From the NCBI RefSeq assembly GCF_054482595.1, contig NZ_CM137008.1: a stretch of DNA of 64,000 bases; one strand, 5' to 3'. The notes under the pieces are model-generated. The model made no database searches and was not told where the DNA came from. It was given only the letters and a program-made list of their open reading frames with translations. The position numbers and the translations under genes are program-made. Positions 8,152-63,522 of this stretch are shown here, one piece after another (the stretch's first letter is position 1; every line of letters starts with the position of its first letter).

Positions 8152-9240
8152 TCACGGCAGGCGGTGGCGGGCTTGATAATAAGCCTGCCAGTGAGCTTCT
8201 TTATGTGTGGCGACACGCTGTTCGAAGTAACGGCGCAGACGAGCGCGATCTTCTTCGTTATCTTTGACGATGGTTCCGGCAATGCAGTCCACCAGATCGG
8301 CTGGCTCACCTGCGCGATTCGCTAAAAACCAGGCGCGGACGCCCACGGCGTGGGCCACGTTCACGGCTTCAGCGGTGGACATAATCGCTGTTAGTGTATC
8401 CATTGACGTTTTCTTTTCGCCGTTGGCACGCAGATCGCGGAAGGTGCGGACCAGTAACTCCAGTACCGCGTCAGGCACTTTATGCGGAATACCGCTATGG
8501 GCCAGCAAACGCGCCGAAGCACTGGCGACAAGCTCCAGCTCCTGGGCGAAATCCATAATCGGAAAGACAGTTTCAAAATCGAAGCGACGCTTTAGCGCAG
8601 CACTCATTTCATTGACGCCGCGATCGCGGGTATTGGCAGTGGCAATAATATTAAAGCCTTCTCGCGCATAGAGCTGACTGGCTTCACCAGTGAGTTCCGG
8701 CACCGTCATCACCCTGTCAGAAAGCATACCTAACAGACAGTCTTGCACTTCCAGCGGTGTACGCGTTATCTCTTCAAAACGGACGATTTTGCCGTCGCGC
8801 ATTCCCTGGTAAAGCGGGGCAGGGACCAGCGCTTCCGTTGATGGACCATGATTGATAAGCAGGGCGTAGTTCCAGCCGTACTTGATTTGATCTTCGGTAG
8901 TAGATGCGCCGCCCTGGATGGTTAACCCGGCATCGCCGCTAATAGCGGTTACCAGTAATTCAGACAGGAGAGATTTTGCGGTGCCAGGTTCCCCCACCAA
9001 CATCAAACCGCGTCCGGTGGCAAGAGTGACTAACATACGTTCGACAGCGGAGGGACTAATCACCACTTTACGGCTAATATTTTGCGCGCTATCGCCAAGG
9101 ATAAAAGCACGGGCCGCAGGCAAACTTAACTGCCAACCGGGCGGGCAAGGTGCGTTATCATTTTGTTTTAATTTTGCCAGTTCATCGGCGTATAACACAG
9201 CAGCAGGCGGACGCTGCAGATGATTATTCTGCGGTGACAT
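8152..9240 (-). CDS. yehL: YehL, MoxR-family AAA+ ATPase (362 aa)
   Basis: Walker A GEPGTAKS and AAA+ core; ORF trimmed to MSPQNNHLQRPPA (ATG at 9238-9240). Confidence 0.85.
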   Translation of the reverse strand: MSPQNNHLQRPPAAVLYADELAKLKQNDNAPCPPGWQLSLPAARAFILGDSAQNISRKVVISPSAVERMLVTLATGRGLMLVGEPGTAKSLLSELLVTAISGDAGLTIQGGASTTEDQIKYGWNYALLINHGPSTEALVPAPLYQGMRDGKIVRFEEITRTPLEVQDCLLGMLSDRVMTVPELTGEASQLYAREGFNIIATANTRDRGVNEMSAALKRRFDFETVFPIMDFAQELELVASASARLLAHSGIPHKVPDAVLELLVRTFRDLRANGEKKTSMDTLTAIMSTAEAVNVAHAVGVRAWFLANRAGEPADLVDCIAGTIVKDNEEDRARLRRYFEQRVATHKEAHWQAYYQARHRLP

Positions 9241-9349
9241 ATATTCATCCCTGAAATGTATTAATGAAATAAACGATATTTTACGCGCAATAAATGTTTG
9301 GCTCATTAGTTGTTTGAGCGAAAAATATCTGGAAAGCAGATCACAGTAA

Positions 9350-9388
9350 ATAAAAAAACCTGCTGGTGAGGCAGGTTCTTTTATTTAC
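9350..9388. terminator. Bidirectional intrinsic-terminator-like hairpin, unit A; candidate 3' end of an antisense sRNA
   Basis: aaaaaaa-cctgc-tggtgag-gcagg-ttcttttattt: GC stem flanked by an A-run on one side and a T-run on the other. Confidence 0.5.
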
Positions 9389-9672
9389 TATTTTCAGGCC
9401 TAACACCACAGCCTGTGCAACATCGTGTTCCAACGAACGAATTATAACCACGGCTGGACCCCGTTGCAATTAAGATAATGAGATTTATAATCCAGACCGT
9501 TGGGACGTTGCGCCGGATCGAACCTATTTCAAGTCCTGGCTACCGGACGGGTGGTGCTTCAGGTGGTGCCCTGAGCCGGAGTGCAACATCGTGGTCCAAC
9601 ATACGTAAACCAGTATTGACAGGCAGTGTAAGGGTAAGGTGCTGGTGTTGCGCTCCTTAATAAGGAGAGCGG

Positions 9673-9762
9673 ATGGACTCGCTGACACAAAAGTTAACCG
9701 TGCTCATTGCTGTACTGGAGCTATTAGTAGCTCTGTTACGGTTGATTGATTTGTTGAAGTAA
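9673..9762 (+). CDS. zorP: Small hydrophobic 29-aa protein MDSLTQKLTVLIAVLELLVALLRLIDLLK; candidate type I toxin (ZorO/ZorP-like)
   Basis: ATG 9673 preceded by AGGAG (9662-9669) that lies in an inverted repeat (ctcctta/taaggag) able to sequester the RBS; single predicted TM helix; followed by a hairpin. Symbol recalled from the E. coli O157 zor-orz locus; which copy is O and which is P is uncertain. Confidence 0.55.
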   Translation: MDSLTQKLTVLIAVLELLVALLRLIDLLK

Positions 9763-9783
9763 CGGGCAAATTGAAACGCATCT

Positions 9784-9810
9784 AAGGGGGAAAACCGCTT
9801 CCCCCTTTAA
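9784..9810 (+). terminator. Hairpin downstream of small toxin ORF copy 1
   Basis: aaggggg / ccccctt stem with a 10-nt loop and a short T-run. Confidence 0.4.
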
Positions 9811-9959
9811 TAAAATGATTACTGTTTTTATTAATTCATCATATAACTCATTTTTATTTATAAATTCATCGATTTTATATTCAACGCACCATTTGACCGG
9901 GATGTGAATATTTATGGTGGGCTATTGGCAAAAAATATCTGGAAAGTAGATCGCAGAAA

Positions 9960-9998
9960 ATAAAAAAACCTGCTGGTGAGGCAGGTTCTTTTATTTAC
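9960..9998. terminator. Bidirectional intrinsic-terminator-like hairpin, unit B
   Basis: Same sequence as 9350-9388. Confidence 0.5.
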
Positions 9999-10280
9999 TA
10001 CAGTGACGCTAACTTGCTGATTGTGCAACATTTCGTACCAACGAATAAATTATAACCATATCCACACTCCATTGCAATTCAGTGAGTGAGATTTATAATC
10101 CTGCCCGTTGGGAGGTTGTGCCGGATCGGACCAATTTTAAGTCCTGGCTGCCGGACGGGTGGTGCCGCAGGCGGTGCCCTGATCCGGAGAGCAACGTTTC
10201 GTACCAACATACGTAAACCAGTATCGACAGGCAGTGTAAGGGTAAGGTGCTGGTGTTGCGCTCCTTAATAAGGAGAGCGG

Positions 10281-10370
10281 ATGGACACGCTGACACAAAA
10301 GTTAACCGTGCTCATTGCCGTACTGGAGTTATTAGTGGCTCTGTTACGGTTGATTGATTTGTTGAAGTAA
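10281..10370 (+). CDS. zorO: Small hydrophobic 29-aa protein MDTLTQKLTVLIAVLELLVALLRLIDLLK; candidate type I toxin (ZorO-like)
   Basis: Second copy, differs by one residue (S3T); same RBS-sequestering architecture. Confidence 0.55.
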   Translation: MDTLTQKLTVLIAVLELLVALLRLIDLLK

Positions 10371-10391
10371 CGGGCAAATTGAAACGCATCT

Positions 10392-10418
10392 AAGGGGGAA
10401 TACCGTTCCCCCCTTTAA
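10392..10418 (+). terminator. Hairpin downstream of small toxin ORF copy 2
   Basis: aaggggg / cccccctt stem. Confidence 0.4.
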
Positions 10419-10479
10419 GAAAGCTATACTCGTCATACTTCAAGTTGCATGTGCTGCGACTTTAATTATCTAGAGTATA

Positions 10480-10797
10480 TTATTCTATTTCTTGGTTGAA
10501 TATATTCTGTAGTTTACGATTAAAAATTGCTATTACAGTTTCAGGTGATTCACCTCGTAATTTCCGCTCATCAATACACTCATCTCTTATATAAATCAAC
10601 GCATCATTTATTAGCGGGTCAGCATCTTCTCGATCACGTTGATGAAATGTTGAACGTAGCCGGAATCGCTCCAGTCGATAGACGGAACCTGTAAATAATT
10701 CAGAGCATTTATGGATCTCAAGTCTGAAGGAAAACGGATCTTCAGGTACAGGGACCTCATAATCGTAAATAGCAACCAGCTCTTTTTGCACGATCAT
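10480..10797 (-). CDS. yehK: YehK, small uncharacterized protein (105 aa)
   Basis: Complete ORF, co-directional with the giant paralogues upstream. Confidence 0.7.
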   Translation of the reverse strand: MIVQKELVAIYDYEVPVPEDPFSFRLEIHKCSELFTGSVYRLERFRLRSTFHQRDREDADPLINDALIYIRDECIDERKLRGESPETVIAIFNRKLQNIFNQEIE

Positions 10798-62854: not shown

Positions 62855-63000
62855 CGGGACGCTGAAACGGGAAAGCCCCTCCCGAGGAAGGGGCCATAAA
62901 TAAGGAAAGGGTCATGATGAAGTGGATCATCATCGTGGTGCTCTTAGTCATAAGCTTCCCGGCTTACTAAGACTACCAGGGCGGGGGAAACCCCGCTCTA
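62855..63000 (-). ncRNA. Candidate Sib antisense antitoxin sRNA, copy 1 (boundaries approximate)
   Basis: Inferred from the ibs/sib architecture, in which the antisense sRNA fully overlaps the ibs ORF; hairpin elements at both ends of the unit. Confidence 0.4.
62914..62970 (+). CDS. Ibs-family hydrophobic toxin peptide (18 aa, MMKWIIIVVLLVISFPAY)
   Basis: ATGATG start, wholly hydrophobic peptide ending in AY, RBS aggaaaggg; location between mdtA and yegL matches the recalled K-12 ibsA/ibsB-sibA/sibB locus. Confidence 0.65.
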   Translation: MMKWIIIVVLLVISFPAY

Positions 63001-63179
63001 CCCTCACTCCTGAAAGTATGCCTTCACGATAAGATTGTCAATCCGCAGGCTTTGCAGTCTGCGATCCTGCCAGCAAATATTCTTTGCGAGTCGTTACGCA
63101 ATAATCACAGAGGAAACTATTTTGTTCACGCGTTAGCGATAGACTGTATTCAGGGCGAAAGGAGGTAAGCCGACGATTT

Positions 63180-63330
63180 CAGCGGGATGCTGAAACGGGA
63201 AAGCCCCTCCCGGAGAAGAGGGCTTTTAATAAGGAAAGGGTTATGATGAAGCACGTCATCATACTGGTGATACTCTTAGTGATTAGCTTCCAGGCTTACT
63301 AAGAACACCAGGGGGAGGGGGAAACCTCTC
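63180..63330 (-). ncRNA. Candidate Sib antisense antitoxin sRNA, copy 2 (boundaries approximate)
   Basis: As copy 1; minus-strand hairpin gccctcttctccgggaggggc followed by a T-rich run just beyond the ibs start. Confidence 0.4.
63243..63302 (+). CDS. ibsA: Ibs-family hydrophobic toxin peptide (19 aa, MMKHVIILVILLVISFQAY)
   Basis: Near-identical to recalled IbsA (MMKHVIILVILLVISFPAY); A versus B assignment uncertain. Confidence 0.65.
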   Translation: MMKHVIILVILLVISFQAY

Positions 63331-63522
63331 CCTAACCCTCACTCCTGAAATTATGTCACTCCGCCCTTAGTGTCAATCGACGGCTCTCCGTTCTTGCGAG
63401 GCGAATAGCAAAATTTTCTGCGCCGCCGGGCCTAATTCTGAAAGTTTCTTCGTTTGCTCTTATTTCATTATTGCAGTCGGTATGATACCGGACCTCGATA
63501 ATTCTCTAAGAAAGGATTTCTT

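Follow-up and report, generated by a model that had tools for sequence, protein, structure and literature searches.

The systems closest to zor-orz in organization are tisB/istR-1 and shoB/ohsC of E. coli. As in zor-orz, their sRNA gene is divergent from the toxin gene and does not overlap it, and 18 to 21 nt of complementarity connect the 5' end of the sRNA with a long toxin 5' UTR. The likeness extends to an inactive primary transcript that is activated by 5' processing and to an sRNA that blocks an upstream standby site, (PMC7708055). A divergent sRNA that pairs through ca. 18 to 21 nt of its 5' end is also what is found in zor-orz, and this classification is stated in PMC3919570. However, there is no sequence relationship between the toxins or between the RNAs, zor is not known to be under SOS control, and zor-orz, unlike these two systems, consists of tandem paralogous units with distinct pairing specificities. 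In this last respect it is similar to ibs/sib, also a multicopy type I family, whose sRNA paralogs tell paralogous toxin mRNAs apart by means of short, variable recognition regions. Nevertheless, Sib is a true cis-antisense RNA that covers the whole ibs ORF and has two recognition sites, whereas Orz acts in trans and has a single one (V1). In the case of dinQ/agrB, both the toxin and the sRNA are different, but a segment of ca. 113 nt upstream of the plasmid dinQ ORFs is 71 to 74% identical to the zor 5' UTR (PMC11264685), and the dinQ mRNA is, like zorO, activated by 5' processing (PMC5066626).

The zor-orz locus was first described in O157:H7 EDL933 (Fozo 2010, PMC2887945; Wen 2014, PMC3919570). 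Both of its toxins are toxic, including Z3290 (ZorP), both sRNAs have been seen on northern blots, and transcription starts have been mapped (PMC2887945). OrzO rescues cells from zorO and OrzP does not (Wen 2014, PMC3919570). The two sRNAs carry different versions of V1 (sRNA nucleotides +9 to +11), i.e., GAA in OrzO and ACG in OrzP; V1 swaps transfer specificity, compensatory mutations in zorO restore repression, and no more of OrzO is required for it than the first 18 nt; repression does not need Hfq, and RNase III contributes to it (PMC3919570). The published zorO UTR is 174 nt long and is poorly translated at full length; the loss of 28 nt opens positions +73 to +102 and raises translation, while the ribosome binding site (RBS) stays in a hairpin, placed within a stem by published probing (PMC5397157). 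Work published in 2010, 2014, 2017, and 2024 (including Wen 2017 and mSystems 2024) has already covered the locus and its sRNAs, the site of pairing, V1 as the specificity determinant, and the self-inhibition of the leader. In the searchable literature, we found neither a rescue experiment of OrzP on zorP nor a cross test of OrzO on zorP. The copy considered here, zorP, is the less-studied sibling.

The zor-orz locus between yehL and yehK

The window analyzed here is a stretch of 64,000 nucleotides (RefSeq assembly GCF_054482595.1, contig NZ_CM137008.1), in which positions 9320 to 10440 are a duplicated zor-orz type I toxin-antitoxin locus of E. coli. The segment at 9478 to 9660, singled out in a preliminary description of this DNA, is very probably the promoter-proximal part plus the 5' UTR of zorP, one of two tandem units located between yehL and yehK. 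It contains the -10 box of zorP together with the greater part of the zorP 5' UTR (174 nt; 9499 to 9672, plus strand, the published length counted back from the ATG at 9673). The alignment of the copies places the two units at 9320 to 9830 and 9928 to 10440, with an offset of 608 nt. An Rfam scan of the whole window at the gathering threshold gave two minus-strand matches to RF02083 (OrzO-P), at 9352 to 9427 (99.9 bits) and 9962 to 10035 (88.8 bits), above the gathering score of 60 for this family. The Rfam score, the toxin peptides, the yehL-yehK/yehI position, the divergent sigma-70 promoters, the pairing site, and V1 were all found to be those of a zor-orz locus, and nothing speaks against this assignment.

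A megablast search with 9320 to 10440 produced a match in 5,232 of 5,426 complete E. coli genomes, 3,389 of them with at least 80% query coverage. The locus is 100% identical in E. coli strain 2824 and 99% identical in an O157:H7 genome; in both, its neighbors are yehL and yehK, and the flanking ORFs of the window agree with this. It is the same locus as zorO-orzO/zorP-orzP (z3289/z3290) of O157:H7 EDL933, with identical sRNA seeds, targets, V1, and toxin peptides, and differs from the O157:H7 version by a few substitutions outside the pairing sites. Compared to O157:H7 TB21-1, the zorP leader and the sequence immediately before it differ at seven positions, again outside the pairing sites, and the zorO 5' UTR (10107 to 10280) is identical to that of O157:H7.

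RefSeq/PGAP annotation is blank across the 1.2-kb yehL-yehK intergenic region (9240 to 10480 in the window, and likewise in O157:H7 and strain 2824), and searches of Pfam and NCBIfam with both toxins gave no match, i.e., the toxin family has no model in them. An experimentally characterized locus is thus invisible in standard annotation and will go on being rediscovered by scans. In some of the genomes sampled (L008 to L011), the end of a zor unit has been annotated as part of a longer yehK or of a hypothetical ORF. With a permissive E-value, an Rfam scan of 9200 to 10500 detected no family for the leader, the two OrzO-P matches were the only credible ones, and the remaining matches, below their gathering scores, look like chance. 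We also scanned one genome per species with the 22-mer of the RBS hairpin and obtained three matches, all within Escherichia (E. whittamii and two other Escherichia species), although an exact 22-mer misses diverged relatives and such a scan sets no family limits.

Divergent sRNA genes and toxin leaders

Each copy has its own sRNA gene, as the preliminary description had supposed, and both genes belong to family RF02083. The gene orzP (ca. 83 nt, 9352 to 9434, minus strand) is preceded by a minus-strand promoter and ends in a Rho-independent terminator. Its pairing seed is made of the 5' 20 nt, GUUGGAACACGAUGUUGCAC (minus strand), with ACG at V1 (+9 to +11). The second gene, orzO (9962 to 10042, minus strand), has the 5' end GUUGGUACGAAAUGUUGC and GAA at V1; read from its promoter-derived start, this downstream sRNA begins with GUUGGUACGAAAUGUUGCAC. 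With ACG as its V1, copy 1 is orzP/zorP, and copy 2, with GAA, is orzO/zorO. The antitoxin had been expected to be antisense to the leader, and this part did not hold: the partner is a divergently transcribed gene located upstream, which pairs via a short repeated sequence. The 5' end of the sRNA lies 65 nt upstream of the toxin +1, on the opposite strand, and does not overlap the leader.

The promoters of orzP (minus strand) and zorP (plus strand) are back to back at 9441 to 9491, with 10 of 12 matches per strand in a promoter scan. Their -10 TATAAT boxes end at 9441 and 9491, respectively, the zorP box occupying 9486 to 9491. The orzP start was placed near 9434 from the minus-strand -35 (9469 to 9464) and the -10 ending at 9441. 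Only four sigma-70-like sites were present in 9200 to 10500, and they correspond to two zor and two orz promoters arranged as two back-to-back pairs. The hexamers (-35 TTGCAA and -10 TATAAT) are >99% conserved (PMC11264685). A single palindromic TTGCAA (9464 to 9469 and 10072 to 10077) is the joint -35 of both divergent promoters, with spacers of 16 nt for zor (plus) and 17 nt for orz (minus), and the transcription of toxin and antitoxin may compete for, or share, one RNA polymerase contact. It should be noted that the sRNA and UTR ends given here were derived from promoter geometry together with published primer extension.

The +1 positions so placed are 9499 for zorP and 10107 for zorO, each 8 nt past the -10 box. 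The leader had been taken to start at 9478, and this has to be corrected, with the -10 box at 9486 to 9491 and positions 9478 to 9498 being promoter. The description of two conserved leader copies separated by 608 nt was right, the true leaders being 89.7% identical. By alignment with copy 1, the zorO 5' UTR (174 nt, plus strand) has the coordinates already given. The first 28 nt of the zorP mRNA (9499 to 9526) are the homologs of those removed from zorO by processing (delta28; PMC5397157). The putative EAP region (+73 to +102), proposed as a ribosome standby site exposed after processing, would be at 9571 to 9600 when the zorO coordinates (PMC5397157) are transferred by analogy. Further downstream, minimum free energy (MFE) folds contain a hairpin, identical in both copies, in which CUCCUU is paired with the Shine-Dalgarno AAGGAG and the RBS is sequestered (9653 to 9667). 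The ORF list gives a 29-aa toxin in each copy. That of zorP (9673 to 9762), MDSLTQKLTVLIAVLELLVALLRLIDLLK, equals ZorO with T3S, and ZorP has been defined as the T3S variant of ZorO (PMC11264685). That of zorO (10281 to 10370), MDTLTQKLTVLIAVLELLVALLRLIDLLK, is identical to the published ZorO peptide (PMC6669753). After the zorP ORF, a terminator-like hairpin can be read from the sequence at 9784 to 9808 (GGGGG...CCCCC followed by TTT). An mRNA ending there would be ca. 310 nt long, which fits the zorO transcripts of ca. 280 and ca. 310 nt reported in PMC3919570.

Each zor-orz unit comprises a gene for a 29-aa membrane toxin with a 174-nt leader and, ca. 65 nt upstream of the toxin start, the divergent Orz sRNA of ca. 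83 nt. In the mechanism that we propose for zorP on the model of zorO, the 5' end of the full-length leader would close the EAP (+73 to +102) and the RBS would be held in its hairpin, giving poor translation. Removal of the first 28 nt would open the EAP, probably a ribosome standby site, and make translation active. [quoted passage not shown] For zorP, the first two of these steps are carried over from zorO; the delta28 processing, the EAP standby site, the RNase III dependence, and the translational block are all presumed from the 89.7% identity between the two leaders.

Folding gave a mixed picture. The predicted helix between nt 1 to 24 and +74 to +102, which would close the sRNA site and the standby site, has -22.1 kcal/mol in zorP and -28.5 kcal/mol in zorO. 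The unconstrained MFE fold of the zorP leader lacks the pairing between the 5' end and the EAP, and imposing this pairing on the fold costs 2.1 kcal/mol. With delta28, the target accessibility computed for zorP does not rise (0.48 to 0.40), and that for zorO does (0.35 to 0.57). Single-sequence folds of the zorP leader reproduce only partly what has been described for zorO, and the mechanism above is not based on them.

Pairing specificity and divergence of the copies

A pairing window of 18 to 30 nt had been anticipated within the leader, and one is indeed present in each copy. The OrzP site in the zorP leader covers 20 nt (9581 to 9600, plus strand), of which 19 form Watson-Crick pairs and the remaining one, 9594, is in an A.G mismatch (sRNA +7). 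In the zorO leader, the OrzO site covers 18 nt (10191 to 10208, plus strand), and its helix with OrzO +1 to +18 includes a single G.U (10196). [quoted passage not shown] The source of the complementarity is a short direct repeat on the plus strand (9415 to 9434 versus 9581 to 9600). When 1,000 shuffled OrzP seeds were paired with the zorP UTR, the mean energy was -15.4 kcal/mol (standard deviation, 2.5) and the best value -25.3 kcal/mol, against -32.7 kcal/mol for the real seed. The complementarity between leader and sRNA is far beyond chance.

The duplex prediction that had been put forward as a check was carried out, and it separates cognate from crossed pairs. On the zorP leader, the energies were -32.7 kcal/mol for OrzP and -23.1 kcal/mol for OrzO; on the zorO leader, they were -18.9 kcal/mol for OrzP and -31.3 kcal/mol for OrzO. 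When the cost of unfolding was included (cofolding of whole sRNA and leader), cognate pairs ranged from -17.0 to -25.0 kcal/mol and crossed pairs from -6.9 to -13.4 kcal/mol, and in every cofold the intermolecular helix ran from sRNA nt 1 to mRNA +102. The number of pairable positions of OrzP on zorO was 15, the same count as in Wen 2014 (PMC3919570). According to these models, good pairing is restricted to an sRNA and the leader of its own copy, and the failure of OrzO on zorP is a prediction (-23.1 versus -32.7 kcal/mol). The copy-specific repression suggested in the preliminary description agrees with the published failure of OrzP on zorO and with the transfer of specificity by the 3-nt V1 swap (PMC3919570), and the window carries these same versions of V1.

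Toxin mRNA and sRNA share their first nucleotides, both starting with GUUGG (9499 to 9503 in the mRNA and 9430 to 9434, minus strand, in the sRNA of copy 1; 10107 to 10111 and 10038 to 10042, minus strand, in copy 2). Either GUUGG is able to pair with the CCAAC at leader positions +98 to +102. The mRNA 5' end thus seems to imitate the antitoxin seed in cis, until delta28 processing removes it.

The leaders of zorP and zorO differ at 18 of 174 nt. Seven of these differences fall within the 14 nt from 9582 to 9595, at the pairing site, a concentration reached by 556 of 100,000 permutations, and there is a single difference between the copies in the whole of 9596 to 9672. The claim that substitutions are clustered stands for this stretch, which holds the specificity determinant, and not for the example that had been given, 9483 to 9520, which contains four differences in 38 nt, i.e., the average density, and straddles promoter and transcript start (two of the four are upstream of +1, in the promoter). 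We also considered whether the differences in 9483 to 9520 might compensate those of the target site through the helix between the 5' end and the EAP, and rejected it: they do not look compensatory because the predicted pairing of the zorP 5' end is stronger with the EAP of zorO (-30.6 kcal/mol) than with that of zorP (-22.1 kcal/mol). Between sRNA and leader, compensating changes on both sides were found at four base pairs, those formed by sRNA +6, +9, +10, and +11 with their partners.

We extended the comparison to 26 units from 15 genomes, taken from the window, 12 E. coli genomes, E. whittamii, and two other Escherichia species. In this sample, sRNA and target change together and form four classes: P, O, Q (sRNA GUUGAGAUGCCAUGUUGCAC, target UGCAACAUGGCGACUCAAC), and a Q variant in L014. 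Over the 26 units, cognate energies were -31 to -33 kcal/mol, and crossed energies between classes with different targets were -16 to -27 kcal/mol. Among the 20 distinct units, the variability of the leader, taken in 10-nt bins, is highest at 9586 to 9595, inside the target site, and the sRNA seed at 9426 to 9435 varies in parallel with it. In all 10 of the two-copy loci sampled, the copies are of unlike class: P plus O in the window, L001, L002, L003, and L006; P plus Q in L007 to L010; and O plus Q in L011. A survey of 2,439 loci had already found the pairing region to be "quite variable" and pairing with the cognate zor to be possible for 99.8% of Orz, and its authors proposed that this variation "may prevent crosstalk" (PMC11264685).

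That copy specificity is the reason for keeping both copies, as the preliminary description also proposed, is speculation. The specificity might instead be a by-product, in which the pairs drifted after duplication under selection for cognate pairing only and orthogonality is not why both persist. Several points favor this explanation: single-copy and orz-only strains are common (ca. 30% of genomes are orz-only; PMC11264685), pairs resembling P, O, or Q occur at the single-copy loci in our sample, crossed duplexes retain a fair stability (-19 to -27 kcal/mol), and a fitness test of crosstalk is absent from the zor-orz literature consulted. However, the differences are far denser at the target site than elsewhere in the leader (permutation frequency, 0.0056), every sampled two-copy locus combines different pairing classes, and V1, the part most critical for repression, is among the changed positions. 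We regard the by-product explanation as rather unlikely, though it deserves to be kept in mind.

One more regularity of the seed helix is a position without Watson-Crick pairing in every sampled class (9594/9428 and 10196 in the window, unit 2 of L007, and L014). The imperfect position is A.G at +7 in P, A.A at +7 in Q, G.A at +7 in the L014 variant, and G.U at +13 in O. All sampled P-type E. coli units that have a target site share the same P mismatch with O157:H7 and E. whittamii. We found no remark on this imperfection in the zor-orz literature consulted for this locus. It is a doubtful proposal, and we would not expect it to be borne out, that the imperfection is a selected feature (e.g., tuning RNase III cleavage or duplex turnover) instead of tolerated drift. 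If the imperfection were functionally required, it would amount to a small new design rule for such antitoxin RNAs.

Among the sampled genomes, the laboratory strain E. coli OV2 (L015, K-12-like) has only orzP, the zor promoter, and the start of the zor 5' UTR (ca. 927 to 1019), and a pattern search of this locus found neither the target site nor the toxin ORF. It fits the published "orz-only" OrzPmg orphan antitoxin, a state present in about 30% of genomes (PMC11264685).

Other readings of the leader and other RNA features

The leader could also be controlled by a cis-encoded antisense RNA, transcribed from the minus strand across it and pairing over the full overlap, as in hok/sok, ldr/rdl, and ibs/sib. 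Many type I systems are built in this way, and two such Sib RNAs are found in the same window. However, the four sigma-70-like sites of 9200 to 10500 leave no minus-strand promoter-like site inside either leader, the minus strand of the leader has no Rfam match, and the sRNA genes are situated entirely upstream of the toxin starts, so that no antitoxin gene overlaps the toxin mRNA on the opposite strand. Moreover, the probes used by Fozo 2010 for the coding sequence and both UTRs of each gene revealed no antisense RNA (PMC2887945), and repression is already accounted for by an experimentally verified trans-pairing sRNA (PMC3919570). Such an RNA is extremely improbable at this locus, and repression by the divergent, trans-pairing Orz sRNAs is the reading that we retain. 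We give practically no credit to a leader peptide or small protein encoded by the 60-codon ORFs (9478 to 9660 and 10086 to 10268), open frames of equal length in both copies that the preliminary description rightly judged to be probably noncoding, as they differ at 19 codons (15 nonsynonymous and 4 synonymous changes; 6/8/7 by codon position, with no third-position bias, against 1 nonsynonymous and 3 synonymous changes between the toxin ORFs of copies 1 and 2), start 21 nt upstream of +1 inside the promoter, at an ATG in one case and at a GTG in the second, and gave no match in Pfam or NCBIfam.

The two Sib RNAs (RF00113) are at 62899 to 63041 and 63228 to 63376, minus strand, with 140 and 150 bits, and the ibs/sib locus at 62899 to 63376 is the second duplicated type I toxin-antitoxin locus of the window, of the cis-antisense kind. 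Two further RNA matches are ordinary E. coli features, the CyaR sRNA (RF00112; 49454 to 49539, minus strand; 100.7 bits) and a TPP riboswitch (RF00059; 33114 to 33210, plus strand; 71.2 bits). In strain 2824, the TPP riboswitch is annotated immediately upstream of thiM/thiD.
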